A stretch of 64,000 nt of DNA from Escherichia coli (GTDB lineage: Bacteria; Pseudomonadota; Gammaproteobacteria; Enterobacterales; Enterobacteriaceae): NCBI RefSeq assembly GCF_030013595.1, contig NZ_CP122768.1, one strand, 5' to 3'. A model generated the notes under the pieces. It was given only the letters and a program-made list of their open reading frames with translations. It was not told where the DNA came from and searched no databases. Below, piece after piece: positions 1,521 through 20,060 of the stretch. A program made the translations under genes and the position numbers. Every line of letters begins with the position of its first letter. Positions within the stretch are counted from its first letter, which is position 1.

Positions 1521-1597
1521 CGAATCACCTCACTATAAAACAGGAATAAGGGAGGCGTTAACCTCCCAACGTTCATGTTTTATTTAGGTACGCAATC

Positions 1598-2431: not shown

Positions 2432-2440
2432 TATTACCCC

Positions 2441-2911
2441 TTAAAAACGCGCTAGATAAGAAAATTTAAGGCTAAGTGTCCCAACGATACCCCCATCACT
2501 AGAATCATCGTCATAATCGGTATTAGAAGCTACTGGAGTGATATCTGAAATTGAGAAGCCCAAATCTTTAAAACGTGGGTTATCCGGCTGAATCTGGATT
2601 ATCTGGCAAATACCCTCATGAATTTTGGTTTCATGAATCTGAGAATACAATTGCATTTCGATAACGCATTCAGCTTGCATTGCATTACCGCCACGGACCC
2701 TATTGTAAGTCTCATTCATTCCGGTGATCCAACAAACCACGTCATCACTAAAGCCTTGCTGAGTTTGTTCTACGTTTAAAGCCAGACCTAAATCTTGTTC
2801 GATAATATCCTGCAAGGCGCGTTTGATTTTCAGTCTAGGCATATTATTAACGGTAGCGAGCATGTGTACCCCCTGCCAGAGTGATAAAGCAATCAGTTGT
2901 ATTGTCACCAT
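2441..2911 (-). CDS. Hypothetical virion morphogenesis/neck protein (156 aa as tracked; more likely ~140 aa from ATG at 2863)
   Basis: ORF track; internal ATG at 2861-2863 has a GGGGG SD, first ATG has none; sits in the head-tail module. Confidence 0.4.
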   Translation of the reverse strand: MVTIQLIALSLWQGVHMLATVNNMPRLKIKRALQDIIEQDLGLALNVEQTQQGFSDDVVCWITGMNETYNRVRGGNAMQAECVIEMQLYSQIHETKIHEGICQIIQIQPDNPRFKDLGFSISDITPVASNTDYDDDSSDGGIVGTLSLKFSYLARF

Positions 2912-3137
2912 TGCGCTTAACGTATTGAACTTTGAAACGCTGATTTTCTACAGTGACAATATCACCCTGCTTTAAGTCTCCCTCACGACAAAATAGAAAT
3001 TCTGTCTCTGTCATTACCCCTGATTCGTCGGTAGTAGTAATTTCATGATAAGCACGAATTGATTTACCACCTTCCACCGAAAATACAGGAGCACTTCGGA
3101 ACATTCTTGATAATTGTGATTCTGATAATTTGAACAT
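2847..3137 (-). CDS. Putative head-tail adaptor/joining protein, 96 aa
   Basis: ORF track; AAGGGGG SD; size and position immediately after capsid gene. Confidence 0.35.
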   Translation of the reverse strand: MFKLSESQLSRMFRSAPVFSVEGGKSIRAYHEITTTDESGVMTETEFLFCREGDLKQGDIVTVENQRFKVQYVKRNGDNTTDCFITLAGGTHARYR

Positions 3138-3165
3138 AGTTACCCCCTTTATGGAGTATTTACAT

Positions 3166-3194
3166 ACAAAAAAGCCCCACCGTTAGGCAGGGCT
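3166..3194 (-). terminator. Rho-independent terminator/attenuator after capsid gene
   Basis: Minus-sense hairpin AGCCCTGCCTAACGGTGGGGCT followed by T-run; same hairpin family recurs at 9845-9872 and 16351-16380. Confidence 0.5.
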
Positions 3195-3212
3195 AATTAT
3201 TATTTTGCTTTC

Positions 3213-3232
3213 GGTGGACGTCCCACCTTTTT
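3213..3232 (+). terminator. Plus-strand hairpin plus T-run (antisense terminator)
   Basis: GGTGGACGTCCCACC followed by TTTTT inside a minus-strand operon. Confidence 0.35.
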
Positions 3233-3286
3233 AGCTGTGGCTTTCGCCGTAACTACCGGAATTTCTTCCGGCAATTCTTCGTTATT

Positions 3287-5293: not shown

Positions 5294-5338
5294 TTAATCA
5301 CCTTTAATTAATTGGGGGCATTGCGCCCCCGTTGGTTA

Positions 5339-6850
5339 TTAGGGATCGGCTGGGGAATTTTTTTCTTCACCCTCGCCATCAACGATAATATTTAGTGCGC
5401 TCTTTTCGGCTTGAATCTCTGAGAATACTTTTTCAGGATCATCACCACGTTCAAGAATAACGGCAGTACGTGATTTAAGTCCTTTATCAATTAAAGCAAT
5501 CTCGGCGCTTACGTCTTTAAATGGATCGACGGATTCAAAACGAGGACGAATAATAGTAGTGTTGTCGATAATATGCGGAATTGCAGTAATACGAATCGGA
5601 ACAATACCACGCGCGGAATAATGGCGTAGATATGCTTCGAAAATTGGCAATACCACTGTTTCAATCAATTTGTTTTGCAGTGCTTTAACTCGTGTGCGCT
5701 GGGTTAATTCACCGAAACGTGCGGCTGAGTAGTTGATCTGGCTAGTATCACCAGTCAAGCCCTGTTTAAACACGCCTAAGCCCATTGATACGCTAGTAAA
5801 CATCGCATCATTGAAGCTGTTAAAGTCATCACCGCTTTGCGTCGCCTGGATGCTCTTGATCGTTGCCCCTTCCGGCAATTCCTGAATAGTACCCGGTGCA
5901 AAATCCTGTACTACTTCCGGCGCTTGATATTGTTCATCCTCTTCACCAGTATCAAAATCGTCACCAGAATCTTTCGGACGTTCGATAAAGCCCATAGAAC
6001 TAGCCGCAATACGTTTCTGGACGATCGCAGTTTCGCGGAATGCGTCTTGATGTGCGATATCCTTAATCACTGGCAGGAAATCAGTCACACCACGCAGGGA
6101 TTCAGACGCAAGTGGTTGATAATAATGGAATACTTGCGAAGCATCGACGCGATAGTTATCACCTGTGTAAGTCTGAGTCAGTAGGTTGATTTTACGAAAC
6201 CAATATGCAACAGGGCGCATTGTTTCTACGTCATACTCGATCCCCTGATAGATAGCACGTTCTTTGCTTATTTCACGGTTTAGCGACCAGTCGCACTTAT
6301 CAGCAGACAGGATGGAAACATTTAACTCATTGTTTTCTTTGGTTAAAACGATGAAGCACTCACCACCCATAACGCGCTCACGTTCAGCCATTACCAGCAG
6401 TTCACGGAAGTTAAAGCGACCGTTACGAGAGAAGCGTTTAGCGTTCTGCGCCCACTTCCAGAAAGCATTCTCGATCTGCTTATTCAGTGCGCTATCAAGT
6501 TTGCCATTTGATTTAACGATTGACGGCTTCGGATCTAGGCCAGTACCTACCACCATATCGGTGATGTATTGCGTGTAGCGACTGCCAACGGAAGTGTTTA
6601 AGGCCAGAGTACGACCCTGATCATAAAGGCGCTCACCGTTCGATTTGAGAGCCTTATTGAAGGTTCCTGTAATGGTGTCTTGTTGAAGTGATCCATCAAT
6701 ACGATCACCAACCAGTCCTAAACTACGAGTCGCCAGAGATTTCTGGTATCTTTCTATAGATTTGTCGATGAAAATTTTTGGTTGTTGCTGGCGGTGATTA
6801 GTTTTAACTGGAGTTTCTACCGCCTTTTTGCGTCGAAAAAGATTAAACAT
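5339..6850 (-). CDS. Portal protein, 503 aa (family not determined)
   Basis: ORF track; size and position between terminase and protease-capsid gene; acidic C-terminus; AAGGGG SD. Confidence 0.6.
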   Translation of the reverse strand: MFNLFRRKKAVETPVKTNHRQQQPKIFIDKSIERYQKSLATRSLGLVGDRIDGSLQQDTITGTFNKALKSNGERLYDQGRTLALNTSVGSRYTQYITDMVVGTGLDPKPSIVKSNGKLDSALNKQIENAFWKWAQNAKRFSRNGRFNFRELLVMAERERVMGGECFIVLTKENNELNVSILSADKCDWSLNREISKERAIYQGIEYDVETMRPVAYWFRKINLLTQTYTGDNYRVDASQVFHYYQPLASESLRGVTDFLPVIKDIAHQDAFRETAIVQKRIAASSMGFIERPKDSGDDFDTGEEDEQYQAPEVVQDFAPGTIQELPEGATIKSIQATQSGDDFNSFNDAMFTSVSMGLGVFKQGLTGDTSQINYSAARFGELTQRTRVKALQNKLIETVVLPIFEAYLRHYSARGIVPIRITAIPHIIDNTTIIRPRFESVDPFKDVSAEIALIDKGLKSRTAVILERGDDPEKVFSEIQAEKSALNIIVDGEGEEKNSPADP

Positions 6851-6860
6851 GATTTACCCC

Positions 6861-7355
6861 TTATCGCGTAAGACGTAATTTGATATTTTTAATCGGACTA
6901 ATTCCCTGTTTACGTCGTTCGGCTTGAATTAATTTAGATAACTGACGTTCATAATCAGTCTTCAATTGCTGGAGAACACCCAATGACTCATAGGCGAAAG
7001 TATTCCCTTTCACGGTCATTTGAGATAATGCGGCTTCGTCCCCAGATAGCCTGGCGAAAATAACTTGCTCGATTACAGAAATCGTTTCGCGCAGATGTTC
7101 TTTTTTGGATTGTTTGGCGAATACTGGCAAAACAGTTAATTCCTGCATTGATACCAGTTCTTCATCAAGAGTAATAACAATGGTCATCTTCCCTTCTGGA
7201 AAGTCTAACGTTTTAATCTCGTGATTTTCCGGTGCATCATCGACCTGATAGACAATGCCTTTGCTATTACCTACCTGAATTGTTACACCCTCTTCATTCG
7301 CAAGCGTGACTTTTTCGCCTTTACGAATTACTAAGGGAATTAGTTCTAAACTCAT
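6861..7355 (-). CDS. Hypothetical head protein, 164 aa (occupies the gpW-like position between terL and portal)
   Basis: ORF track; AAGGGG SD; tightly spaced with neighbours. Confidence 0.35.
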   Translation of the reverse strand: MSLELIPLVIRKGEKVTLANEEGVTIQVGNSKGIVYQVDDAPENHEIKTLDFPEGKMTIVITLDEELVSMQELTVLPVFAKQSKKEHLRETISVIEQVIFARLSGDEAALSQMTVKGNTFAYESLGVLQQLKTDYERQLSKLIQAERRKQGISPIKNIKLRLTR

Positions 7356-7427
7356 AATTACCCCTTATTTAATTGTTATTGGATTAACAATATTTAGGAG
7401 TAAGCCGCCCCGAAGGACGGCGAGTTA

Positions 7428-9332
7428 TTAGAACGATGTTACCCAGCTACGGCCTCTATTTGGGCGTCTGACGATGTTTTGACGTTGTGGTCGTGTGATT
7501 GGCTTAGTTTCTTCGATTTGCTCGTCAGATTGCGATTTAGGAGCTTCTACAGGTTCTTCTGGTTCACGGTTCAAACTATCTTTGATGGCTTCGAGTTTTT
7601 CCCATGACATTTTATTGAGTACATGACGAGAAGCAGCATAGGAATAAGCCAGGCAGTCCAACGCTTCGTTTCGTGTTTGTCCAACTTTTACCCAACGTGT
7701 GGTATTACCCTGCCGTTTCAACTGTTCAGAAAGCAATTGCTCGCAATAGTCATCAGGAACGTCACCAATCTGGAAGACAGTGTGAGGATCGCCATCTCTC
7801 AAGTTCCGGTTAATCATTTCACGGATCATCGTTTTAAGGTTGTTTACGCCCAGAATTTTAAGGGTAAAACCACCCGTTCTTGTGTCTTTTACCGGAAGGA
7901 TTGGTGCATCAACATTGCTTGCGCCTTTAATGGCGGTTAGATTTTGCCACCGACTACAGAATCGATAGATCACGTTTGTAGCTCGTCCGTTCGATGAGTC
8001 CACGAAAGCAGATAACATCGGGATTCGTTCACCGGATCGGGTATAGAATTTAGCTTTCAGGAAGTTGTAAAGCTGGTTATATGCTGGTGATTCGTGGCGT
8101 TCGCAGTTCACATCATAGAATGATCGGTGATCAACTACGCATAGCCCTTTACGAGAAATACCCAGCAAGGTAGATTCCAGACGGTCTTTTTGCTGGTCAA
8201 CTCCACCTACCAGAGCCAGTACATCATCAGGAATATTGTCTAGGCTAATATCAGTTTTCAGCGTTTCTAATTCGTCGGCTGTGCGGTCTTCGTTAAGATC
8301 ATCGAAGGTTTCACCGAGGACTGTATTGTAGAACGTTGCCAGGGACATATTCGCGTAGCTATCAGCAAAGTCCACCACACACGCACGGATAGAACTAAAC
8401 GGAGACATAAGGCGGTTAGCATGAAAACCGATTACTTCCGCGTTTGGTTCGGTGGCGACCCATTCTCCCTGTCCAACAGCACGTAGGCGATCACCCTCGG
8501 TCCAATCGGTTTCACATTCAGGGCAACGGTAAACGGCTGTATCTGGGTTGGGTAATGATTTACCGTTAATCGTATGCCAATCGAAATGTACGTTACTCCA
8601 TTCCATTACGTGCTTGTGTCCGCAATGCTGGCAAACGACATGATATTTTCTCTTATCCGAGAGTTCCCATTGTTGGTTAATCGCCCCATCACGAGCGGTT
8701 GGAGTGGAAGCAATTACGATCCTTGCATCTTCCCCGAAAGTGGTTGCGCGTTGTTCCGCTAGTTGGATCGGGTTCCCTTCGTCTGACTCATCAGCCGCAT
8801 CAACTTCATCAAGAATAATCAAAGGGAGTGTTTTACCGCGAAGATGTGACGGACTATTCAACGACATGAAATACATAAACGATCCGTTACGAAGCTGAAT
8901 AATCGATGAGTTGTTAACGGCATTGCGATCTGATTTGTCGGTGATCATCGCCTTTAATTCTGGTGTTGCCTCTAATACTGGCTTCACCTTACCAGCGATC
9001 CAAGAATTTAGTTCTCTAACGTTACTTTGCAACACCCCAATATTAGTAGGGTTACTCGCGATCCGATGGAAGATAATTCCGTTAAGAATCATGGTCTTAC
9101 CCAACTGTGCCGAACATTTAAACACAATTTTTCTACGGTCTTCGGTGATCGCGTCCATCATTCCACGTTGGAAGGGATGCAATTTAATTAGCGATCCGGC
9201 TTTAACACCATCGGTTGCAACTACATTAGCCTCTACCCATTCGCTAGGTTTCATCGTTTTAGGTGGGCGAATTGCCGCAGAGATATTTTTAAGAATCTTT
9301 TTTAATTTTGCCTTGTTCGAAATCAGTTTCAT
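7428..9332 (-). CDS. Terminase large subunit, lambda GpA family, 634 aa
   Basis: ORF track; recalled lambda gpA similarity: ..HPFQRGMMDAI.. near N-terminus, Walker-A-like KCSAQLGKT, C-terminal RNEALDCLAYSYAA matching gpA RNEALDCFVYALAA. Confidence 0.85.
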   Translation of the reverse strand: MKLISNKAKLKKILKNISAAIRPPKTMKPSEWVEANVVATDGVKAGSLIKLHPFQRGMMDAITEDRRKIVFKCSAQLGKTMILNGIIFHRIASNPTNIGVLQSNVRELNSWIAGKVKPVLEATPELKAMITDKSDRNAVNNSSIIQLRNGSFMYFMSLNSPSHLRGKTLPLIILDEVDAADESDEGNPIQLAEQRATTFGEDARIVIASTPTARDGAINQQWELSDKRKYHVVCQHCGHKHVMEWSNVHFDWHTINGKSLPNPDTAVYRCPECETDWTEGDRLRAVGQGEWVATEPNAEVIGFHANRLMSPFSSIRACVVDFADSYANMSLATFYNTVLGETFDDLNEDRTADELETLKTDISLDNIPDDVLALVGGVDQQKDRLESTLLGISRKGLCVVDHRSFYDVNCERHESPAYNQLYNFLKAKFYTRSGERIPMLSAFVDSSNGRATNVIYRFCSRWQNLTAIKGASNVDAPILPVKDTRTGGFTLKILGVNNLKTMIREMINRNLRDGDPHTVFQIGDVPDDYCEQLLSEQLKRQGNTTRWVKVGQTRNEALDCLAYSYAASRHVLNKMSWEKLEAIKDSLNREPEEPVEAPKSQSDEQIEETKPITRPQRQNIVRRPNRGRSWVTSF

Positions 9333-9423
9333 GTAATTACCCTCATTACGAAATATGAAGGTATTTATTAAATTGTTGATATTTTGATAAATATGGGTAT
9401 TAAGGCAGAGTTCTTTATGTCGG

Positions 9424-9453
9424 TTGACGATGGAGAACTTTTTCCGATAAAAT
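9424..9453 (+). promoter_or_regulatory. Candidate sigma70 promoter for the 77-aa gene
   Basis: TTGACG, ~17 bp spacer, ATAAAA/TAAAAT about 45 bp upstream of the start codon. Confidence 0.4.
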
Positions 9454-9498
9454 GTAAGTCCTCTAAATAAAGGTGAACATTCACTTTAATTTGGAGAA

Positions 9499-9732
9499 AT
9501 GACTATGACTACTAAAGCTACTCGCGGTCGCCCTGCCCGTTATACTCGTGAACAGATGGCTGATATTGCCTACGCTTACTATACAGCGGATCGCGGGAAG
9601 GAAGCGAAAGAACAGATTCTTAGTGAACATGGGATTTCAGTAGCCCAATTCTATAAGAATATGAAGAAGTTAGACATTAAATTCTATGTTCAGATCGATG
9701 ACGGTCAGATCGTAGAAGCAACAGGTTTTTGA
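9499..9732 (+). CDS. Small putative DNA-binding protein, 77 aa (paralog of 13446..13628)
   Basis: ORF track; N-terminal RGRPARYTRE motif shared with the second small protein (ARPVKFTRE); own promoter and terminator. Confidence 0.45.
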   Translation: MTMTTKATRGRPARYTREQMADIAYAYYTADRGKEAKEQILSEHGISVAQFYKNMKKLDIKFYVQIDDGQIVEATGF

Positions 9733-9740
9733 TTCTCTTT

Positions 9741-9764
9741 GCCACTCTTCGGAGTGGCTTTTTT
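9741..9764 (+). terminator. Rho-independent terminator of the 77-aa gene
   Basis: GCCACTCTTCGGAGTGGC followed by TTTTTT. Confidence 0.6.
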
Positions 9765-9792
9765 GTATCTAAGTTATTGATTTTCTCGAACT

Positions 9793-9835
9793 TCACAATT
9801 TGTGGGAGTCGGGAAACATCCACAATTTGTGGGAG
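9793..9835. repeat. Two direct copies of CACAATTTGTGGGAGT (27-bp period), each with an 11-bp palindromic core CACAA-T-TTGTG
   Basis: Read directly; lies between two convergent terminators. Confidence 0.6.
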
Positions 9836-9844
9836 TTGGATAGT

Positions 9845-9872
9845 AAAAAGCCCCACCATTACGGCAGGGCTT
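9845..9872 (-). terminator. Rho-independent terminator of the 183-aa gene
   Basis: Minus-sense AGCCCTGCCGTAATGGTGGGGCT followed by TTTTT. Confidence 0.55.
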
Positions 9873-9876
9873 CTAA

Positions 9877-10428
9877 TCAGATTCCGAAGATGTCACATAG
9901 GTCGGCTGTGTGGCGTTCTTGTTTTGAATAGTAAATCCGTTCAGCTTCATATAACGTGATAGAATCATCATTAACGACGGTTTCAAACTCCCCTTCTATT
10001 ACCCTTTCTGTGTGCGCTTTACTGCGTAATTCGGCCTCTTCCATGCGATATAAGCCAATACAGATACTACCATATACACCATATTTTTTCTCGTCGAGAT
10101 GGCGACGACCTTTGCGTTGTTCGAACGGAAGATCGTAAGCGGTTATCTTTTTGCGGCGAACTCGATCATATCCACTCTCTTTGGCATCAATCATCATACT
10201 AATCAACATCCCACATTTAACAAGGGATTCAAGGCACTGACGAATAGAATTAGTTCTTGATTGTTTTAATTCTGGGTTAGGATCGTAATATGGATTATCT
10301 ATCCATGATTCATGAATAAGGAAATGTACGTCATCAGCCGTTAAAGGCCAACCACCAACACTTTCAACATCGGTCTTAGTACAATCAAACAGATCCAGAA
10401 TGAATTTCTTTTTGTGCGTCATTTTCAT
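9877..10428 (-). CDS. Hypothetical protein, 183 aa
   Basis: ORF track; last gene of a four-gene minus-strand operon; no family recognised. Confidence 0.45.
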   Translation of the reverse strand: MKMTHKKKFILDLFDCTKTDVESVGGWPLTADDVHFLIHESWIDNPYYDPNPELKQSRTNSIRQCLESLVKCGMLISMMIDAKESGYDRVRRKKITAYDLPFEQRKGRRHLDEKKYGVYGSICIGLYRMEEAELRSKAHTERVIEGEFETVVNDDSITLYEAERIYYSKQERHTADLCDIFGI

Positions 10429-10523
10429 AATGTTCTATCCTCAAAATACTTAAAAAGTACCATGCCGATTTTCGCGGCATGGTCAAAAAATCACCATACA
10501 CCCAATGGGCGTTTGGTTAAAAA

Positions 10524-11363
10524 TTAGATACCAAAGACAGCAAGTGATCCGGCGTTCTTACGAATCAATGCGGCGGTATTATTAACGATTGCACGAGCAT
10601 TGTTAGGCTGCGGTAATTTCAAAGTTGCTATCGTCTCTTCCTCAATCAAGCCCAATTCAACCAGCACTGGTAAACAGTCAGTTGTGAACTCAAGCTGACC
10701 ATGTGCTGATTGTCGGGCATACATGTAAGCAGGAGGAAGAACATCATAGCCACAAGGCTTACCAGAAGCATCCAGACGGCGCTCAATGTGTTTAGCCTCA
10801 CACAATCCCTTAAGAATACGTTGTACCTTCGTAGAGCCTCGTTTTTCGCCCAATAAGCGGGTTAAGCTGTGCCCGTCAATGGCACGGCGAACATGAAGAT
10901 CAATTAATTGTTCTTTTTCTTCCGCTAAAGTCAGAGCCTTACGAATCCAATCAACTTCGGTCATCTTGCTTGCGTCTGGGAAAGCGTTATTCTTTAATTC
11001 TTCATTTTCTTTCTTCAAACGCTGCCATTCATCAACCAGCATTGCGGTATAAACCGGATCGGTCTGTGCGATAACAATGTAGCTATCACGTTCAGTCAGA
11101 AGATAAACTTCAATTGGTTTGCCTTTACGGCCTAAACGGTCAGTTTTTGACCAAAACGCCACTGGCGGTTTGGTTACAATTTGAGCTTCAACCAGACGAT
11201 CAACCGTTCTCATAATATCGGTGTGACGGTTTTCACGCCCCATTAGTTCAGCAATACGCCAGGTAGAAATTGATAATTCTTTCTCTACAGAGTCATTTGC
11301 AGCAGTCAGGTCAACAGAAGAAGCAGTTTTAACAGCAGTATTCATAGTAGTAACAGTATTCAT
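10524..11363 (-). CDS. Rha-family phage regulatory protein (antirepressor-like), 279 aa
   Basis: ORF track; N-terminal ..STWRIAELMGRENRHTDIMRTVDRL.. resembles the Rha-domain pattern (recalled); C-terminal domain unrecognised. Confidence 0.5.
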   Translation of the reverse strand: MNTVTTMNTAVKTASSVDLTAANDSVEKELSISTWRIAELMGRENRHTDIMRTVDRLVEAQIVTKPPVAFWSKTDRLGRKGKPIEVYLLTERDSYIVIAQTDPVYTAMLVDEWQRLKKENEELKNNAFPDASKMTEVDWIRKALTLAEEKEQLIDLHVRRAIDGHSLTRLLGEKRGSTKVQRILKGLCEAKHIERRLDASGKPCGYDVLPPAYMYARQSAHGQLEFTTDCLPVLVELGLIEEETIATLKLPQPNNARAIVNNTAALIRKNAGSLAVFGI

Positions 11364-11451
11364 AGTAGTAATTCCCCTTTCGGTTTAGTGATATTGATCC
11401 TCCTAGTTCCGGCATCACCACCGGAACATTTTTATTTATGATAGAAATTTA

Positions 11452-11784
11452 TTACCAATCGATTTCTACTTGGTCTTCTTCATAATAAGGAATCGCATAT
11501 TCATAACGCCAATTTTCGATGATTTCACGTTCTTCATTAGTAAGAAGGTGATTGTTAACTGGAGTCGCATTGTGATTACCAGCTTCGAATTGCTCGCGAA
11601 CTTCCAGCATTGCATGAATACCAGTTAAGGACATCAGATCAAACGGAACATGCATACTACGGGAGATTGTTTCACGGGATACGCCCCAATCATTTTCTAC
11701 ATGGCTAGGGGTTACAGAAACGGTTTTGCCGGAGATTTTAACAGTCCAGTCATACAGGGATTTAGTGATGGTAAATTCTTTCAT
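11452..11784 (-). CDS. Hypothetical protein, 110 aa
   Basis: ORF track; directly downstream of a consensus promoter. Confidence 0.4.
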   Translation of the reverse strand: MKEFTITKSLYDWTVKISGKTVSVTPSHVENDWGVSRETISRSMHVPFDLMSLTGIHAMLEVREQFEAGNHNATPVNNHLLTNEEREIIENWRYEYAIPYYEEDQVEIDW

Positions 11785-11825
11785 GTTACATCCTCTTTAC
11801 AAATCTAGGTCAAATAGGTTCAAAG

Positions 11826-11883
11826 TTGTCAAGTGCGATAATCATAAAAAAGTTTGAAGATATTGTCAAATACCACTTGACAA
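11826..11883 (-). promoter_or_regulatory. Consensus sigma70 promoter (TTGACA-17-TATGAT, minus strand) bracketed by a 10-bp inverted repeat TTGTCAAGTG / CACTTGACAA
   Basis: -35 at plus 11864-11869, -10 at plus 11841-11846; inverted-repeat arms at 11826-11835 and 11874-11883. Confidence 0.5.
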
Positions 11884-11905
11884 GACACCAAAGGGTTGAC
11901 CTAAC

Positions 11906-12094
11906 TTACAGCATATCTAAGCCTTCATCGTAACCGTAGAAGCCATTCTGAGAAGAGAAGCAGATTGGTGCGTAGTCGTCGTCATCTTCGTCTTGTTCAT
12001 CTTGTTCTGGGGCTTCCTGAGCGGTTTCTTTGCCGTAGTTAAACATGGCTTCATCCAGTTCATAGTGGAAATCCTCTAAAAGAAAGTGAATCAA
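11906..12094 (-). CDS. Small strongly acidic protein (62 aa from TTG; 46 aa from internal ATG); frame uncertain
   Basis: ORF track (TTG start); acidic run EAPEQDEQDEDDDDY; an alternative overlapping frame has the better SD. Confidence 0.25.
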   Translation of the reverse strand: MIHFLLEDFHYELDEAMFNYGKETAQEAPEQDEQDEDDDDYAPICFSSQNGFYGYDEGLDML

Positions 12095-12700
12095 TCTAAT
12101 ATTATTTATAAAGAGAAAATTCTTGTTATTATGAAAGGAGTGATCTGGTAGAGTCCAAAACTGGTCTGTACTTGAAAGGTGATTGGATTCAGTCGGGCAA
12201 AGCCCTCCTTCATGTTTTGATTAAATCATCATCAAAACGAAGAAGTATCTTTAGAATATAAGATCTTTCTTTTGGAGAAATAATAATCAGGAAGCAATTT
12301 GGCAACCGAAGGTTGCAATCCCGAAGGGATAACCAATACCTTTCTAGAAAGTGATTGTTACTCACTTCGTTCGTTTACTAGAATCAGTTATCATCTGGTA
12401 TTAAATCCCTTTCTAAGAAAATCCTTTCAAAAGTGATTCTCGATGCCACGCAGTGGCGTCGCAGACGTTTGGGAGTGAGCGAAGCGAGCGAGCAAACTAG
12501 TTAATTCCTTCTAAGACCATCTAGTATCATCTAGTTTAAATTAGTTGTTACTAGAAGCAATTGGTTGGCGCTTCGCGCAGTCGGGCTAAAGCCCTCCTAA
12601 TTATCTTTTTGGTTATTTGTTGTTTTTAGTTTTACACATGAGCGTAGCGAATGTGTTATATAATATCTATGCACGCCCAATCCCCCGCTTTTTCCCCTCA
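12095..12700. other. ~600 bp hairpin-dense non-coding region (candidate structured RNA or DNA-level origin/packaging signals)
   Basis: No ORF; many short-loop hairpins (GCAACC-GAA-GGTTGC, ATCCC-GAA-GGGAT, GCCAC-GCA-GTGGC, GCGC-TTC-GCGC); CTAG-rich; ~20-bp direct repeats CAGTCGGGC(T)AAAGCCCTCCT at ~12190-12209 and ~12578-12598. Confidence 0.5.
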
Positions 12701-12743
12701 CTAAGTTAATGTTTTATAAAGAGTTTTTCTCACCAATCCTTTT

Positions 12744-12931
12744 CGGGGGCAAATTTCAGGGGCAAAAATTAGATTTTCAGGGGCAAAAATAGTGGGTTTC
12801 AGGGGCAAAAATGAGGGGCAAAATCACTGTTTCCCAGAATTTCAGGGGCAAAAATAGTGGGTTTCAGGGGCAAAAATGGGATGTGGAATCTAGGGGATTT
12901 TGGTTCAGGGGCAAAATTCAGGGGCAATTTT
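12744..12931 (+). repeat. Iteron array: 9 copies of (TTCA)GGGGCAAAAAT, including an exact 38-bp duplication
   Basis: Read directly; copies at ~12746, 12759, 12780, 12802, 12815, 12845, 12867, 12908, 12921; 38-mer TTCAGGGGCAAAAATAGTGGGTTTCAGGGGCAAAAATG at 12777 and 12841. Confidence 0.85.
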
Positions 12932-12968
12932 CATAGTGTAGGGCTAGTGTAGGTTTGAAAATCCTTTG

Positions 12969-13025
12969 TTGACACTGTGTAGGATCGGTGGTATACTTGA
13001 AAATTCGAGATAAATATGTTATAAT
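12969..13025 (+). promoter_or_regulatory. Tandem near-consensus sigma70 promoters next to the iterons
   Basis: P1 TTGACA (12969-12974), 17 bp, TATACT (12992-12997); P2 TTGAAA (12997-13002), 17 bp, TGtTATAAT (13017-13025). Confidence 0.55.
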
Positions 13026-13171
13026 ATTTGTATTGAAAGTGAAAATTTACCGATTTTCCTTCCTATTGTTATCACCGTGTTAAATTGTTATATGTCTGTG
13101 AAGATTTGGATCTGAGAGAAAATCTTGTAACAAATCTTTACAATTCATAGCTCAATTAATGCTCACCGCTT

Positions 13172-13310
13172 TAGCAAAAAGTGCTATGCCTTTTTCTAAA
13201 TTGATTGAATATACATCAATTTGGTTAAATCGTGTTCTTCGCTTTAGCAATTCGTGCTGTGGTTTAACACATTTAACACGTCTGATAACATCTGAATAAC
13301 ATTTTAACAT
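13172..13310 (+). promoter_or_regulatory. Operator-like palindromes and phased TAACAY repeats upstream of the 60-aa gene
   Basis: TAGCAaaaagTGCTA (13172-13186) and TAGCAattcgTGCTg (13245-13259); five TAACAC/TAACAT copies at ~10-11 bp spacing in 13264-13310. Confidence 0.45.
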
Positions 13311-13445
13311 ATCTCTGTTATAAATACATATATAAGAGATAAATGTGAGGGGTTGAAAAATAAAATACAATCCCATATAAATAATAGTGAGCGGTTAACG
13401 CTCTTTTTTAAGAAATCATTAATCCACATTGTAGGAGGATTCGAG

Positions 13446-13628
13446 ATGGCACGACCTGTTAAGTTCACTCGCGAAATCATCTTAGAAATGGCTAAACGCT
13501 ACTTTGAGTTAACGCCGGGTGTGAGAATTGAAGAGTGGTTTAAAAATGAGGGCATCGATAAATCAACCTTTCATAAACTGCTAAAACGATATGACATTAA
13601 AGTGAAGATTGAAGCTACCGTTTGGTAA
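13446..13628 (+). CDS. Small putative DNA-binding protein, 60 aa (paralog of 9499..9732)
   Basis: ATG with AGGAGGA SD inside tracked ORF 13353..13628 (which begins at TTG); MARPVKFTRE motif. Confidence 0.5.
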   Translation: MARPVKFTREIILEMAKRYFELTPGVRIEEWFKNEGIDKSTFHKLLKRYDIKVKIEATVW

Positions 13629-13742
13629 TCAACTTTGACTGAGAATTATATGATGGCTTTAAAAAAGAAAAAGCCTCCTTTGCTGCAACAAGGGAGGCTT
13701 GAAATGAACAATTAAAACTAACTTTCCATAGGAGTATTTATA

Positions 13743-14684
13743 ATGTTATTTTCCGCTAACTTTTTCACTAACGAAGTAACCAACGCTAAAGCAGTTATCA
13801 AATTTGGCACCGAAGCAAACAAGAAGATTCAGCCGAAAGTTGTTGCTCATGTTTCCTTTGCGCAGCAGAAATCCGCTTTCGCTGGCTTTAAAGCACATCG
13901 TGAAGCACTGATCGCGGCTGGCTTTGGTGTTGACGGTAAACTGCCTAACGGCATTCGTAAAGCAATCGACCGCGTTAAACCAGTTAAAGACGTTGCAGTA
14001 GACCACATCGTTACTTTTACCGTTAAGAACTCTTCTGAACTGTTCCACCTGGTTATTGCTGGTGATACTGCTATCGTTTCCGCTCCTAACATGGATTTTC
14101 AGGATACCGCTGATTGCCAGATCACCTTCGGTCGTCGTAAAGAAGTTACCGGAAAAGCTAAACTGAACTTCACTAAATCCGGCAATCCTTACTTTGCTGT
14201 ATTCTTTAACAGCCACGCTACCGAAAAAGAAGTTGTAGAACTGGTTGCTTATGAAGGTGAAGAGAAAGAACGTATTGAATCTTGCGAAGCATTTCTGGAA
14301 CTGGAAGCACAGGTGAATGCTGTTTCTCCGGTTGTTGAAGATCGCTTTGCTGCACTGGAAGCACAGATCGCAGAACTGAAAGCTGCACTGGAAGAAAAAG
14401 ACCAGATTATCGAAGCACAGAAAGCTGAGATTGAAGAACTGAAAGCTAAAGAAGTTGCTCCGGTGGCAGTAGTTGAAAACGCGGCTGATGAGGCCGCAAA
14501 TGATGAAGTAGAAGTGAAAATCGATGTGATGCGTGATCCGATGGCTGCACTGCAATTACTTCGTTCTTTTAAGGGCAAATCTCATTTTTCTAGTGATGTA
14601 GAAGATGAGGAAGAAGAACAGAAACGCAATGCTGCAATGCTTCATGATGAAATGTACGGTACTAACTTTTCTTACTGCCAATAA
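13743..14684 (+). CDS. Hypothetical protein, 313 aa: unrecognised N-terminal domain, coiled-coil, acidic C-terminal tail
   Basis: ORF track; AGGAG SD; heptad-like ALEAQIAELKAALEEKDQIIEAQKAEIEELKAKE; no NTPase or nuclease motif seen. Confidence 0.5.
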   Translation: MLFSANFFTNEVTNAKAVIKFGTEANKKIQPKVVAHVSFAQQKSAFAGFKAHREALIAAGFGVDGKLPNGIRKAIDRVKPVKDVAVDHIVTFTVKNSSELFHLVIAGDTAIVSAPNMDFQDTADCQITFGRRKEVTGKAKLNFTKSGNPYFAVFFNSHATEKEVVELVAYEGEEKERIESCEAFLELEAQVNAVSPVVEDRFAALEAQIAELKAALEEKDQIIEAQKAEIEELKAKEVAPVAVVENAADEAANDEVEVKIDVMRDPMAALQLLRSFKGKSHFSSDVEDEEEEQKRNAAMLHDEMYGTNFSYCQ

Positions 14685-14707
14685 AAAAAGGGACTCCGAA
14701 GAGTCCC
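14684..14707. terminator. Terminator hairpin (A-run/hairpin; works for minus-sense transcripts, possibly bidirectional)
   Basis: AAAAAA then GGGACTCCGAAGAGTCCC immediately after the 313-aa stop. Confidence 0.5.
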
Positions 14708-14780
14708 TAGTAAGTTTAGGTTAGGTTTGCACAACAAAGATGAGGTTATAATGAATATAATGCTACATTATTCTTTAAAG

Positions 14781-14811
14781 CCAGAAAAATAACCGCCCCC
14801 TTCGGGGCGGG
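14781..14811 (-). terminator. Second minus-sense terminator hairpin
   Basis: CCGCCCCCTTCGGGGCGG with T-rich tract on the minus sense; ~100 bp from the previous hairpin. Confidence 0.4.
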
Positions 14812-14968
14812 AGGATTAATACTCAATCTATACTTGTTATGTTTTTATGTTGTATAGTCACTGACTATGAAAACACTGTACTGAATGTGTTTTATGGCTT
14901 TTAATCGGGAACTCTCTTTCGAAAATTCCCTGTTAAAACCACATAAGGAGAAAAGGCAGATTACAATA

Positions 14969-15253
14969 TTATTTAGTCTGTTTGAAAACGAACGTTAAAA
15001 ATTCGATTAAGCAATATACCCAAAGTACGGTCAGCATCAAATGCATAGCAATAGTTGGATGGAAGTTAAAAAGTGTCATACTAACTAGGCCAACAATATA
15101 AGAAATTCCTTCGACAATTAACGCAAGGCTAGCAAATGCAACAAACGCACCTAAGAATAATTCGCCTCGTTCTTTCGGTTCGGTTCCGAGTTTATAAGCA
15201 GAGATAGCAGCCAGAATAGTAATGATGACAGCATAGGTAATAAAAGTAGCCAT
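14969..15253 (-). CDS. Small membrane protein, 94 aa (three predicted TM helices)
   Basis: ORF track; AAGAGGA SD; hydrophobic segments separated by charged loops. Confidence 0.5.
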   Translation of the reverse strand: MATFITYAVIITILAAISAYKLGTEPKERGELFLGAFVAFASLALIVEGISYIVGLVSMTLFNFHPTIAMHLMLTVLWVYCLIEFLTFVFKQTK

Positions 15254-15269
15254 AGTTTTATATCCTCTT

Positions 15270-15298
15270 AAAAGTTAAGCGGGGGATGTTCTCCCCCG
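15270..15298 (-). terminator. Terminator after the terS-like gene
   Basis: Hairpin CGGGGGATGTTCTCCCCCG with T-rich minus-sense tail. Confidence 0.45.
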
Positions 15299-15345
15299 TA
15301 GACGTTGACCATCAACATCTTTCATACATTTATTTATAACGCGTT

Positions 15346-15903
15346 TTAAGACACATCAAATTCATCGTCTTCTTCTGGTTCTTGTTCTTCCGGTTCATCC
15401 ATTAATGGTAATTCTTCTTCCTCGTCTTCTCCCAAATCTGCATTTTCGAACAAGTCCCCTACTTCATTTAAACGACGCTCGATGATCTCCCTTAGCTTAT
15501 TCTTTAATGTTTTCTGGTCATTGGCAGATTCGAGAATTTCTAGGGCATCGATCGTACAAATCTGCAAAATAGTCTGCTTCACTTTCCCGCAATATTCCGC
15601 TAGTTGCTGTTCTACATAACCGACAGGAATCAGGAGGTTCATTTTTTCCTGATTCTCTCGTTCGGCTGCATCTGCCATTGCTCTTTCTCTGCGGAGACGT
15701 TCTTGATCAATCGCTTCTTTGATTGAAGTTTGTTTAAGTGGGTTAATTACGTTCTTTAGCACCCAATCGCAACCTTCCTTTGCCGGAACACGCCTCTTAT
15801 TGGTATTGTAAGGTAGTCCCCTTTCTAACCATCGCTTACCGCCACCATTCAATGTATAGCCATATAAACGGGAAATTTCTGTAAGGGTTAATTCTTCTTT
15901 CAT
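15346..15903 (-). CDS. Nu1-like small terminase subunit candidate (winged-HTH protein with acidic C-terminus), 185 aa
   Basis: ORF track; strong GGAGGA SD; GGGK and W.ERGLP motifs loosely like lambda Nu1 (recalled); first gene inside the element boundary. Confidence 0.4.
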   Translation of the reverse strand: MKEELTLTEISRLYGYTLNGGGKRWLERGLPYNTNKRRVPAKEGCDWVLKNVINPLKQTSIKEAIDQERLRRERAMADAAERENQEKMNLLIPVGYVEQQLAEYCGKVKQTILQICTIDALEILESANDQKTLKNKLREIIERRLNEVGDLFENADLGEDEEEELPLMDEPEEQEPEEDDEFDVS

Positions 15904-16350
15904 TGGTTATCCTCCATTAAATTTGCGTAATTTTATTTATTGGTTTTACGCAAAATCTAAGCGCCTAAATCGCATTCTAACGAAGGGAAAGATCCAGTAA
16001 TGGTAAGGGCTAGGAAGTGGGTTAATAGTCGCGTAGCGACCGCGCTAGGACTGCACTGATCACGTTTTAAAATCTCACACGCACATCAAAAACCGGGGTG
16101 CCGAAAACTCGCTTTATCTGACCCCGATCCAGAACCTAAATCATTTGTCAAGTCTTTCCGATTCAGTAAAGGGGAACATGCATCTAAGCTAGAGAAGCTC
16201 ATAAAGACTAAGTATGAATGCGGTGTTGTTAGTCGGGATGATATGCGAGACGGTTACACTGAAACGCTACCATTTGAAGCATTGCCGGAGATCATCACTA
16301 TCACCAACAAAATGATAAGCGAAAGCATCCTCGTAAGTAATTGATTCCTA

Positions 16351-16380
16351 AGCCCTGTCCTTGTGATGGGGCTTTTTTAT
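16351..16380 (+). terminator. Hairpin plus T-run at the element edge (third member of the AGCCCTG...GGGGCTTTTT family)
   Basis: AGCCCTGTCCTTGTGATGGGGCT followed by TTTTTT. Confidence 0.45.
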
Positions 16381-16394
16381 TGGAAAAATTTTAG

Positions 16395-16724
16395 TTATTG
16401 GGGTTTACAACATTTAGGTTTGCCAATTCGTCTGGCTAACTCTTGCTGAGTGATTTCTGACTGTAAAAAAGCATTTAACAGCAATACCTTAGAGGCGACA
16501 CTCAAAGGCACTTCAATAAAGTGATCGTGACTATTTAATGGCGAAGGTAACGGGATAAGCTCGTTATCTTCAAAATAAAAATCAAATGCGGTCAGTAAAG
16601 CATCTTTTGCCGCTTCCATCGCTTCAGCAACTGTTTCGCCCTGGGTCAACGCTTCAGGGATATCCACAAAAGAAACCATATAACCGCCTTCCGGCGCGGG
16701 TGTAAGAGTGACGGGATAACGCAT
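16395..16724 (-). CDS. hicB: HicB antitoxin, C-terminally truncated at the element junction
   Basis: Matches recalled K-12 HicB from MRYPVTLTPAPEGGYMV.. through ..ARRIGKPK, then 5 non-native codons (CCKPQ) and a stop; C-terminal DNA-binding domain missing. Confidence 0.7.
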   Translation of the reverse strand: MRYPVTLTPAPEGGYMVSFVDIPEALTQGETVAEAMEAAKDALLTAFDFYFEDNELIPLPSPLNSHDHFIEVPLSVASKVLLLNAFLQSEITQQELARRIGKPKCCKPQ

Positions 16725-16769
16725 AATTTCGACTGTCTCTCGCATGTCATTAACCTTTTTAATTGGCGA

Positions 16770-16946
16770 TTAACTCAAACCGAGTTGCTTCAGGATTGCT
16801 TTACGCAATGGTTCTTTAATCTCATCGCAGGGGTGACGCGGCATGACACTGCGCCTCCCGTGAAACCTGAGTTTTAAATGGTTGCTGCCATTCGCTACAT
16901 CGACGCCCTGAGATTCGAGCCAACGTCTGAACTCGCTTTGTTTCAC
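16770..16946 (-). CDS. hicA: HicA mRNA-interferase toxin, 58 aa, GTG start
   Basis: Hand translation VKQSEFRRWLESQGVDVANGSNHLKLRFHGRRSVMPRHPCDEIKEPLRKAILKQLGLS; below the ORF-track size cut-off. Confidence 0.7.
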   Translation of the reverse strand: MKQSEFRRWLESQGVDVANGSNHLKLRFHGRRSVMPRHPCDEIKEPLRKAILKQLGLS

Positions 16947-17167
16947 ATCGCCTCCCTGCCGCTGAGTATATCAACAAAGTAAACATTAGTGTTTACCTCC
17001 GTGTGTAATTTGCTCGAAAATAGCACTAAATCGCCGCAACGGCAGAATGCAATGCAAAATCAGGAAGGAAGATTCCAGAATTTCTTTGCGCTAATTTGCA
17101 AAACTGAATAATAACCTCAAGAAACTATCGGCATCATAGCGGCAAAAGGTGAGAAAAAGGTGGCGGG

Positions 17168-17398
17168 ATGTTTACGAAGGCGTTATCGGTTGTCTTATTA
17201 ACGTGTGCGCTGTTCTCAGGACAACTCATGGCAGGGCACAAAGGACATGAATTTATGTGGGTAAAGAATGTGGATCATCAGCTACGTCATGAAGCGGACA
17301 GCGATGAATTGCGTGCCGTGGCGGAAGAGTCGGCGGAAGGTTTGCGCGAGCATTTTTACTGGCAAAAATCGCGCAAACCAGAAGCGGGACAACGTTGA
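17168..17398 (+). CDS. yncJ: Small secreted protein YncJ, 76 aa
   Basis: ORF track; signal peptide; K-12 position between hicA and ydcP. Confidence 0.6.
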   Translation: MFTKALSVVLLTCALFSGQLMAGHKGHEFMWVKNVDHQLRHEADSDELRAVAEESAEGLREHFYWQKSRKPEAGQR

Positions 17399-17404
17399 GT
17401 CATT

Positions 17405-17445
17405 TATTGCCGGATGCGGCGTGACGCCTTACCCGGCCAACAATA
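17405..17445. repeat. REP element
   Basis: GCCGGATGCGGCGTGACGCCTTACCCGGCC palindromic unit in an intergenic region. Confidence 0.5.
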
Positions 17446-17489
17446 TCATGCAGATTCAATAAGTTGTGAGTAACCAGAAAACTGGCGTT

Positions 17490-19493
17490 TTACCCTTTTC
17501 GCTTCGGCAATGTTTTCAGCAGCTCATCCGGACTTACGGAGGCGACAACACTTCCCGGTAACGGCATTTTCAGAATGTGATTTTTAATTTTGCCGATGAC
17601 GTGCATCTCGCATGGGCGGCAATCAAACTTTAGCGTTAATACTTCATCGCCGTTAACCAGTTGCATTGGCGTCGCCTTCCAGCTTTTGATATTGCCTTTC
17701 GCCTGTTTCGGGCACAGATTGAAGGCAAAGCGCAGACAATGCTTAGTGATCATCACCGGGACTTCGCCCTTCTCTTCATGTGCCTCATACGCCGCGTCAA
17801 TCAGCTGCACACCGTAGCGATGATAAAATTCACGCGCTTTCTGGTTGTATACGTTCGCGAGGAAACTCAGATGCGTTTGCGGATAAACCGGCGCAGGATC
17901 AGCAACCGGTTTACGGCTGCCCCGCTGGTAACCGGCAAGACGTGCAGCATCCAGCATGTCGGCGGCTTCACGGCGGAACTGGTTTAACAGACTGTTTGGT
18001 ACAAACAGCGCACCCGGCAAATTAATTTGCACATCGCGGGCGTAATAGATGGTTTGCCCCAGTTTTGCCAGACCATCCTTTAGATTGTTCATTGCTTTTT
18101 CGGCGTTATTGGCTTCGTCGAACTGCCCGTCCAGCGTATGCATGATGCTGACACCCTCTTCACTGGTGAGGGTCAGAATCAGTTGTTCCTGCCAGCCGCC
18201 CAGTTCAATGTCTACCGCCACCCGACGTTCGCTGGATGTTTTGGTCAGTGCCTGCTGCCAGTTATGATCAAGATTACGGTTTAGTGGGTGATGCGGGCGA
18301 ATTTTGTGCAACTCTGCTGGCATTTCATTGGGCCAGACGCGGTACTGATTTTCTCCGGTTTTCTCGACCGTATTGGCACGAAAGCCGACGACTTCACGTT
18401 TAATCATCACGTTCAGGCCATCGCCATTTGCCAGTGGTTCGGAAACGGCAACATCGAGATGATCTTTCGCCACTTTCAATACTTCACCCACCGGCAGGCC
18501 GATAAATTTCGGCGAATCGAACGCGCCAATATCGCCTTTACGGGCATTCACAAAATAATCTGTGCTACCACGGTGGAAAGTCTTTTCCGTCGATGGAACA
18601 AAGAAATGTTCAGTACGACCTGATGAAGCACGCGTCAGATCGACACGTTCTTCAATAATGGCATCCAGCATCTGGCGATAATGGGCGGTGATATTCTTCA
18701 CGTAGCTCATATCTTTGTAACGCCCTTCAATCTTGAAGGAGCGTACGCCAGCATCAATCAGCGCGCCGAGGTTGGCAGTCTGATCGTTATCTTTCATCGA
18801 CAGCAGATGTTTTTCATAGGAAACCACCCGCCCCTGATCGTCTTTCAATGTGTATGGCAAACGGCACGCCTGCGAGCAATCGCCACGGTTGGCGCTACGC
18901 CCTGTTTGCGCATGAGAAATGTAGCACTGACCCGAATAGGCCACGCACAGTGCGCCATGAATAAAGAATTCAATGGTCGCGTCCGTGGCCTGGTGAATCG
19001 CGCGGATCTGCTCAAGATTCAGTTCTCGCGCCAGCACAATCTGCGTGAAGCCAACATCAGAGAGGAACTTCGCTTTTTCTACTGTACGAATGTCGCACTG
19101 CGTACTGGCGTGCAGTTCAATCGGCGGAATATCAAGTTCCAGAATCCCCATATCCTGAACAATCAGCGCATCGACGCCGGTCTGGTAGAGGTCAGTAATC
19201 AGCCGTTGCGCGGGTTCCAGCTCATCATCATGCAAAATTGTGTTAAGCGTGACGAAAATTTTTGCACCATAACGATGGGCAAACGGCACCAGCTCGGCAA
19301 TATCTTTCAGGCTATTACTGGCATTATGACGGGCACCAAAACCAGGGCCGCCGATATAAACAGCATCGGCACCGTGCAAAATAGCTTCGCGGGCAATGGC
19401 GGCATCGCGTGCCGGACTTAACAGTTCAAGACGATGAGAAGATACAGTCACTTTCTTATCCAGTAGCTGAAAAATGGCGGCTATTTTAGCCAC
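17490..19493 (-). CDS. ydcP: U32-family peptidase-like protein
   Basis: ORF track (667 aa); U32-type motifs; K-12 synteny. Confidence 0.7.
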   Translation of the reverse strand: MAKIAAIFQLLDKKVTVSSHRLELLSPARDAAIAREAILHGADAVYIGGPGFGARHNASNSLKDIAELVPFAHRYGAKIFVTLNTILHDDELEPAQRLITDLYQTGVDALIVQDMGILELDIPPIELHASTQCDIRTVEKAKFLSDVGFTQIVLARELNLEQIRAIHQATDATIEFFIHGALCVAYSGQCYISHAQTGRSANRGDCSQACRLPYTLKDDQGRVVSYEKHLLSMKDNDQTANLGALIDAGVRSFKIEGRYKDMSYVKNITAHYRQMLDAIIEERVDLTRASSGRTEHFFVPSTEKTFHRGSTDYFVNARKGDIGAFDSPKFIGLPVGEVLKVAKDHLDVAVSEPLANGDGLNVMIKREVVGFRANTVEKTGENQYRVWPNEMPAELHKIRPHHPLNRNLDHNWQQALTKTSSERRVAVDIELGGWQEQLILTLTSEEGVSIMHTLDGQFDEANNAEKAMNNLKDGLAKLGQTIYYARDVQINLPGALFVPNSLLNQFRREAADMLDAARLAGYQRGSRKPVADPAPVYPQTHLSFLANVYNQKAREFYHRYGVQLIDAAYEAHEEKGEVPVMITKHCLRFAFNLCPKQAKGNIKSWKATPMQLVNGDEVLTLKFDCRPCEMHVIGKIKNHILKMPLPGSVVASVSPDELLKTLPKRKG

Positions 19494-19523
19494 AAGCGCG
19501 ACGTTGCGAAATAGTTTTCCCGC

Positions 19524-20060
19524 TTAACTGCGCGGGTAATGGATGAGGGAATGAAAATGTACGGTTTGCTCCCCTCCATTACGATAGACATGCGTGACGT
19601 CTGCAGCAAATCGAGCGCCTTCCCCACAATTAAGGCTCTGCCATTCACCATCAACGCACAGATCAAGTTGTCCATCAATGACGACGACATGTTCGATTAC
19701 CCCCTTCTCATGGGGCGTCGATTCGCTTATTGCACCGGGTGCCATCTGAATCGAGAAGTGTTCAAAGCAGAGTTGTGGATCATAAGGAAACAGCGAAGTG
19801 ATCACCATCGCCTGCCGTTGTGGATCATAAACTGAAGGCGTAGCGGACTGCGGCGGAGAAATAAATGTTGAAAATGGCACGTTCAACCCGGTGGCAATTT
19901 TCCATAATGTCGCGACCGTCGGGCTGGATTCATTACGCTCAATCTGCCCTAACATCGCTTTAGAAACGCCCGTCGCTTCTGCCAGTCGCGAAAGACTCCA
20001 GCCGCGCTGCTGACGTAGTTGTTTAAGTGTGGTGGATAAAAAGCGAGCGAGATTTTCCAT
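19524..20060 (-). CDS. ydcN: HTH (XRE) plus cupin transcriptional regulator, 178 aa
   Basis: ORF track; synteny. Confidence 0.7.
   Translation of the reverse strand: MENLARFLSTTLKQLRQQRGWSLSRLAEATGVSKAMLGQIERNESSPTVATLWKIATGLNVPFSTFISPPQSATPSVYDPQRQAMVITSLFPYDPQLCFEHFSIQMAPGAISESTPHEKGVIEHVVVIDGQLDLCVDGEWQSLNCGEGARFAADVTHVYRNGGEQTVHFHSLIHYPRS

Follow-up and report, generated by a model that had tools for sequence, protein, structure and literature searches.

A serine-integrase prophage family that probably uses the antitoxin gene hicB of Escherichia coli as its attachment site

The hicAB locus of Escherichia coli contig NZ_CP122768.1 (assembly GCF_030013595.1) carries an intact toxin gene beside an antitoxin gene that stops short where DNA of lower GC content begins. 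Is the short hicB an allele or the edge of an inserted element, by what kind of enzyme was the junction made, and what has become of the control of HicA? The stretch of 64,000 nucleotides analysed here (the window) is in the reverse complement of the K-12 orientation. The genes at the junction and to its right are as follows, the names of the last three being taken from the annotation of matching genomes.

16395–16724, minus strand: truncated hicB, identified with Pfam, encoding HicB residues 1–104 followed by CCKPQ and a stop; 109 amino acids from the K-12/PDB start
16395–16745, minus strand: the same hicB reading frame from an upstream ATG at 16745; 116 amino acids
16770–16946, minus strand: hicA, intact toxin gene, 58 amino acids, GTG start, His23 present; product the same in sequence as that of strain 746 (L003, WP_000813794.1), whose locus is uninterrupted
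16979–16996: perfect and intact palindrome GTAAACA-N4-TGTTTAC, 33–50 nt upstream of hicA; candidate HicB operator (hicO)
17168–17398, plus strand: yncJ
17490–19493, minus strand: rlhA/ydcP
19524–20060, minus strand: sutR/ydcN

Residues 1–104 of the truncated protein are those of full-length HicB, which is chain B of PDB entry 6HPB, and the reading frame then runs through five codons to a TAA at 16395–16397. The first-pass annotation had described an intact hicA next to a HicB that agrees with the K-12 protein through residue 104 and then reads five foreign codons and a stop, and both statements hold. The last 34 residues of HicB (QEITRLFNLHH...SLVMV) have no match anywhere in the window, and neither a second copy of the junction core nor the hicB 3' remnant was found in its whole length. 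In relatives, PGAP labels the truncated gene “incomplete; missing C-terminus”, and both hicB pieces are annotated as incomplete.

The distribution of the junction was determined with a 141-bp probe across the break (16340–16480), which was searched against 5,426 complete E. coli genomes. The probe matched 5,283 genomes in all and was fully covered in 36, with phage DNA fused to hicB every time; nearly all of the others match only from 16413 rightwards and carry an ordinary hicB, as in L003, where the gene is uninterrupted and full-length. A second probe, for the reciprocal junction in which the hicB 3' remnant lies next to ydcR, was fully covered in 34 of the 5,426 genomes. The earlier remark that the junction does not regenerate the 3' end of hicB was correct, and the missing part lies at the other prophage end. 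Paired junctions are mostly 33–41 kb apart, while six genomes with only 4–14 kb between them indicate prophages in decay. The five lysogens fetched in full show a constant order of hicA, truncated hicB, prophage, a 559-amino-acid recombinase, the hicB 3' remnant (117–120 nt) and ydcR. Exact truncated HicB proteins are present on about 1,500 public contigs, Shigella included. Phage attachment sites of both types described below (A and B) are found on two distinct hicAB alleles, and PRO_A is a lysogen with yet another, a pattern that indicates several independent insertions into hicB. In NZ_CP124819.1 (strain C325), two hicB junctions lie 205 kb apart on the same strand, suggesting that the chromosome has undergone an inversion, one end of which lies in the prophage.

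Comparison of the two prophage ends with each other and with uninterrupted hicB resolves the window's junction into the following elements of a hybrid attachment site.

16390–16419: phage (attP-derived) half-site, with a distal GTTATT motif (16394–16399) that contains the stop codon of truncated hicB
16413–16424: 12-bp block TTTAGGTTTGCC, encoding G-K-P-K, identical in type A attP and attB; one copy in the window
16420–16421: putative crossover dinucleotide, TT on the plus strand and AA in the hicB sense, the first two bases of codon K102
16422–16451: host (attB-derived) half-site, hicB codons about 92–101, identical to uninterrupted hicB

In the sense of hicB, attB reads ...CGAATT GGC AA ACCTAAA CAGGAG..., and the 5' junction of the gene in the window reads GGCAAACCTAAA-TGTTGTAAACCCCAATAA, so that the 12 bp at 16413–16424 look like a shared core. 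In type A lysogens TTTAGGTTTGCC is the apparent “direct repeat” of the two prophage ends, and alignment against uninterrupted hicB maps the junction and finds this block at both of them. The visible divergence lies at 16412/16413, but the boundary between host and phage would lie seven bases to the right, at the TT of 16420–16421. The host bases 16413–16419 are copied by attP, and P103, K104 and the third base of K102 would thus be phage DNA that matches hicB by coincidence.

The position of strand exchange was read from natural polymorphisms within the core, which are assumed to be older than the integration. The third base of the core is a phage G or A at the hicB 3' junction and a host C at the 5' junction (MEI003, H2, E275a, PI7, L73, L036, L043, L044). 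The sixth base is a phage C at the hicB 5' junction (PRO_A, DEC5A, CE0007a, E275a, PI7, L73, EC42405) and the host A at the 3' junction wherever this was read, the 3' junction of EC42405 not having been recovered. Paired-junction polymorphisms thus bracket the crossover on both sides in at least 10 lysogens. E275a and PI7, which carry both differences, read GGC-AA-CCCGAAT at the 5' junction of hicB, with GGG-AA-ACCTAAA at its 3' junction; since their differences lie on both sides of the AA, only the AA (TT, 16420–16421), inside codon K102, can be the exchange point if that assumption holds.

Serine integrases are characterised by a 2-bp crossover within a palindromic attP. When reconstructed, attP forms an imperfect inverted repeat with the AA at its centre: its half-sites match at 15 of 30 positions in type A, the type of the window's phage (shuffle p ~0.016), and at 19 of 30 in type B (shuffle p<5e-5). 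In both types GTTAT(T/C) is conserved as a distal motif and a TTAGG-like sequence lies proximally; in the same register the dyad symmetry of attB is low (8/30). Type B phages have only GG-N-AA in common with attB and their insertion point is identical; they give truncated HicB the tail G-N-P-N-V-V-N-P-K, with the same total protein length. The circular attP is predicted to read ...TATTAGGS-AA-ACCTAAATGTTGTAAACCCC..., and the reciprocal junction, left of the window, would read ...ATTATATTAGG(C/G)-AA-ACCTAAACAGGAG... and continue into the last 34 hicB codons and ydcR.

The 559-residue protein encoded at the far end of related lysogens contains the Pfam domains PF00239 (Resolvase), PF07508 (Recombinase) and PF13408 (Zn_ribbon_recom), the architecture of a large serine recombinase (LSR). 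All eight integrases that were translated carry the N-terminal motif YSYIRFSSMRQ, which fits the catalytic serine motif R-x-S-S/T-x-x-Q. The gene itself lies beyond the left edge of the window. Among the contigs that are 99.98–99.99% identical in nucleotide sequence to the window's phage (L017–L022, L033, L034), L033 and L034 have the recombinase, with the same domains, at their far end, and the second junction was read from the close relatives L036, L043 and L044; from these we infer that the integrase gene and second junction of this genome lie outside the window. The best matches in a protein search of 50,697 deposited phage genomes are ~30% identical (Bcep176, YbcK-like), and a PDB search returned only a weak match to the resolvase domain.

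Related integrases were found at other sites. Sister prophages (L004 NZ_CP038857.1, NZ_OW848980.1, L037–L042), whose integrases are 87–93% identical to the hicB enzyme, are inserted in ycdX, which they truncate, adjoining ycdY/ycdZ; their junctions share only ...GG(A/G)-AA-CCC.... The same central AA thus appears to be used with a different attB, hicB or ycdX, as in a natural specificity-switch pair. A further prophage with the same phage backbone (L045, GCA_049837335.1) encodes a 560-residue serine recombinase of ~35–40% identity and adjoins an amidohydrolase gene, apparently a third insertion site reached by a swap of the integrase module.

The explanation that we favour, with a probability of about 0.85, is that window positions 16390–16451 are the integrase-distal hybrid site of an LSR phage integrated in hicB, and that the truncated antitoxin would still sequester HicA. 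The LSR would pair an imperfectly palindromic attP of ~50–60 bp with an attB spanning hicB codons about 92–112 and exchange strands at a single AA, a reaction in which long homology would be unneeded and the target gene not rebuilt. Because such a serine integrase would cross over at 2 bp, the 3' end of hicB would not be regenerated: the gene would be split into a 5' part in the window and a 3' part ~35–40 kb away beside ydcR, outside the window. Precise excision by the LSR and a directionality factor would restore hicB. The defining features of LSR integration that can be tested on sequence all appear to be present: the domains, the catalytic serine motif, exchange at a central dinucleotide (from natural variants) and the inverted repeat of attP.

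Two other accounts of the junction were weighed. Had the short hicB been an allelic variant, made by a nonsense or frameshift mutation and merely adjoining an element, one might point to the frequency of the protein in databases and to PGAP, which sometimes names it simply “HicB family antitoxin”. We give this account practically no credence. The DNA to the left of 16413 is phage DNA in all 36 genomes with this end, no element-free genome has the same short hicB, and the missing 34 codons are intact at the other end of the prophage; on the 36 of 36 phage fusions and the reciprocal junctions the allelic reading was rejected. The short hicB is a prophage junction, specific and recurrent, for which chance is no explanation. 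Insertion by a tyrosine integrase or a transposase, with TTTAGGTTTGCC as the att core or a target-site duplication, draws on the identical 12 bp that flank both prophage ends in type A lysogens, but it is very improbable. The annotation of the five fully fetched prophages contains no tyrosine integrase, their transposases belong to insertion sequences within the prophage, and the Resolvase/Recombinase/Zn-ribbon protein of 559 residues is always at the prophage end. Nor do the base differences inside the 12 bp behave as a duplication would, since they segregate to the left and right of a single AA, around which attP is palindromic. On the LSR domains, the type B junctions, which fall at the same point with so little in common with attB, and the symmetry of attP, a target-site duplication or a tyrosine integrase was rejected.

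LSR prophages and elements that split host genes include SPbeta in spsM and skin in sigK of Bacillus subtilis, A118/phi10403S in comK of Listeria, and Bxb1 in groEL1. The hicB prophage resembles these elements in its integrase architecture (Resolvase, Recombinase and Zn ribbon), in having an intragenic attB, a 2-bp crossover and a palindromic attP, in not regenerating the target gene, and in that precise restoration on excision is possible. It differs from them in its host, E. coli, in its target, a chromosomal type II antitoxin gene, and in an integrase at most ~30% identical to any deposited phage integrase; a developmental or regulatory role of the hicB insertion is only hypothetical. With the tyrosine-integrase prophages (lambda-like, P4-like) it has in common site specificity and the recurrent use of one chromosomal locus. 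In those that integrate at the 3' end of a tRNA or protein gene, attP copies this end and regenerates the gene, whereas here only 2–12 bp are common to the two sites and hicB is cut short. As an event it is of an ordinary kind, a standard serine-integrase prophage splitting a host gene.

The window contains the integrase-distal part of the prophage, delimited by its lower GC, the annotation of relatives and Pfam searches on identical proteins. GC is 0.36–0.47 in this part and about 0.45–0.55 in the chromosome to its right.

1–16419: integrase-distal 16.4 kb of the prophage, continuing past the window start
window left end, within the prophage: tail-fibre tip
3287–5293: capsid-protease fusion
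5339–6850: portal
7428–9332: large terminase
10524–11363: Rha-like gene
16350–16384, plus strand: terminator-like hairpin with T-run, ending the last phage transcription unit and facing hicB; conserved in related lysogens

The prophage family was found in 63 of the 5,426 complete E. coli genomes (~1%), and in a public contig collection 1,111 blocks are indexed for one tail protein of the family. A nucleotide search of the 50,697 deposited phage genomes revealed no similarity beyond the tail-fibre tip (window 1–794) and no isolate of this phage. The tip itself matches gp37, the distal subunit of the long tail fibre in T4-like phages, at 94% for ELT4 and about 79% for Phi1-like phages, and in relatives a Gp38-like adhesin is encoded beside it, which suggests that a receptor-binding module has been exchanged between this temperate phage and virulent T4-like phages. 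The tail-fibre gene also differs in length between contigs that are otherwise 99.99% identical: alignments of window positions about 1283–1306 with L017 11149–11267 overlap by 24 bases, and coordinate arithmetic gives an indel of ~95 bp, which suggests that the fibre shaft has changed in length by way of repeats.

Eight direct copies of TTCAGGGGCAAA lie at 12742–12928 on the plus strand, where 0.39 would be expected by chance, with spacings of 13, 21–22 and 41–43 nt. They fall within 11785–13350, a region of ~1.5 kb that has no open reading frame of at least 90 amino acids and is unannotated in relatives too. These repeats look like iterons, and may mark an origin of phage replication or else sites for a repressor or for partition. 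An Rfam scan of window positions 1–20000 gave no match. Between the lysis genes and the integrase, relatives have a variable cargo slot (L023, L025, L026, L028, L029, L033–L044) that holds a UvsW-like helicase (496 amino acids) with or without CapR-like or MUG113-like proteins, or, in other relatives, unrelated small genes; it may hold defence or counter-defence genes. In E. coli PE15, a pig isolate (L007 2817–7470, NZ_CP041628.1), the hicB prophage carries the colistin-resistance transposon ISApl1-mcr-1-pap2-ISApl1.

The domains of the parent antitoxin are defined by its crystal structure. In intact HicB, Pfam places HicB_lk_antitox at residues 3–67 and HTH_3 at residues 88–134; the truncated protein keeps the first match (3–67) and loses the second. 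The break after residue 104 (...ITQQELARRIGKPK|QEITRLFN...) falls in the turn that leads from the positioning helix to the recognition helix. The cut thus lies inside the helix-turn-helix, and the DNA-binding domain is broken, with the recognition helix and C-terminal helices lost and the HicA-binding domain retained. The first-pass annotation had the DNA-binding domain gone altogether, which is right from the recognition helix onward, but residues 88–104 of HTH_3 (88–134) remain. Judged by its features the locus is a disrupted class 3 HicAB module, in which the HicA toxin of dsRBD fold with its catalytic histidine and the HicA-binding partial RNase H domain of the HicB N-terminus are present, and the helix-turn-helix domain for DNA binding and dimerisation is no longer detected.

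Compared with the HicAB of K-12 (PDB 6HPB, 6HPC, 6U0I), hicA, the promoter region, the candidate operator and HicB residues 1–104 are identical or nearly so; residues 105–138 of HicB are missing, and a five-residue phage-encoded tail is added. The palindrome at 16979–16996, a candidate HicB operator, is conserved in all aligned strains. The helix-turn-helix motifs of HicB dimerise the protein, and the promoter P2, which HicB represses, yields a transcript that gives HicB but not HicA (PMC10865869, PMC8138530); His23 of HicA is the catalytic histidine (PMC8138530). Natural HicB antitoxins of 63–103 amino acids without any DNA-binding domain exist (PMC10865869, PMC8138530), and the antitoxins of class 1/2 HicAB (Gerdes 2024, PMC10865869) are likewise of ~100 amino acids, essentially the partial RNase H domain that binds HicA. 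In class 1/2 the small HicB is the native architecture, whereas that of the window is a class 3 protein truncated by insertion, which keeps two orphan helices.

Deprived of a working helix-turn-helix, truncated HicB would neither dimerise by that motif nor bind the operator, and P2 would be derepressed. With operator binding lost and P2 yielding HicB only, truncated antitoxin would be made in excess; the lysogen would over-produce an antitoxin that still sequesters HicA, and the insertion would be harmless. Continued neutralisation of HicA together with lost autorepression is therefore plausible, and the idea fits the domain map, the published biology of HicAB and the intact hicA of most lysogens. 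The truncated protein, with its two orphan helices and the CCKPQ tail, could also be unstable or prone to degradation by Lon.

The state of hicA in lysogens bears on whether the split is tolerated. Among the 34 lysogens listed, out of 36 in all, hicA is annotated as intact in 26, and the other eight have an allele with a 22-bp deletion, confirmed in PRO_A, that frameshifts the gene. In L73 the prophage has decayed to a 7-kb remnant that is riddled with insertion sequences and has no integrase, so that hicB is permanently split, and both hicA and the 109-residue hicB are intact. Given an intact hicA in most lysogens, including the integrase-less L73, the split is tolerated. Retention of hicA is no proof of neutralisation, because K-12 survives the loss of hicB function, which acts through toxin activation (PMC11481867, citing sigma-E suppressor work); low expression of hicA may be another reason why the gene is kept. 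Of the complete E. coli genomes, about 22% lack any match to hicA, whereas about 97% contain the 3' end of hicB.

Two further readings concern what the insertion does to the cell. Insertion might disable the antitoxin and unleash HicA, so that lysogens survive only by inactivating hicA; the frameshifts in eight of the 34 listed lysogens, and EC42405, which has lost hicA altogether along with the 5' end of hicB, would agree with this. It is nonetheless improbable. Irrespective of the prophage, roughly 18–21% of hicA-bearing complete genomes have the allele with the 22-bp deletion, which is about as common as among lysogens and gives no sign of selection for toxin loss after insertion, and hicA is intact in the window and in L73; a necessary decay of hicA after insertion was rejected on these frequencies. 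Somewhat less improbable, though still doubtful, is a phage regulatory switch (“active lysogeny”), by which HicAB would be constitutive and devoid of a DNA-binding domain in the lysogen and would return to autoregulation on excision. Its effects could include a blunted HicA-based abortive infection or an altered stress tolerance. The target point preserves the neutralising domain, excision by serine integrases is precise, the hicB site has been used repeatedly, HicA systems have been proposed to act in phage defence (PMC10865869), and loss of hicB function alters sigma-E dependence (PMC11481867). Against it, the use of ycdX by sister phages whose integrases are so close suggests that the site is chosen by a loose DNA motif and not by toxin–antitoxin biology, and a stop within five codons is unremarkable in AT-rich phage DNA, where chance is expected to supply one in ~20% of cases or more. 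That the choice of attB is not neutral, and that a cut between the neutralising domain and the recognition helix makes the prophage a reversible toxin–antitoxin switch, is accordingly unlikely; if true, it would alter HicA-dependent phenotypes (abortive infection, superinfection, stress tolerance, sigma-E dependence), to the benefit of phage or host.

With this prophage, hicB joins the list of E. coli prophage insertion sites; in the searchable open-access literature we found no paper that names hicB/ydcQ as a prophage attachment site, and the LF82 paper mentions phage-borne hicAB only. The analysis documents a serine-integrase phage family that is present in about 1% of complete E. coli genomes and has no sequenced isolate. 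For annotation, the presence of two hicB fragments is a sign of a prophage, complete or decayed, which in PE15 carries mcr-1. The sister integrases that target hicB and ycdX are a ready pair for the study of specificity change in serine integrases. The truncated hicB would be a natural separation-of-function allele, with the toxin-binding domain kept and no working DNA-binding domain; as it is present in hundreds of sequenced strains, the P1/P2 model of HicAB autoregulation is testable without building a mutant.
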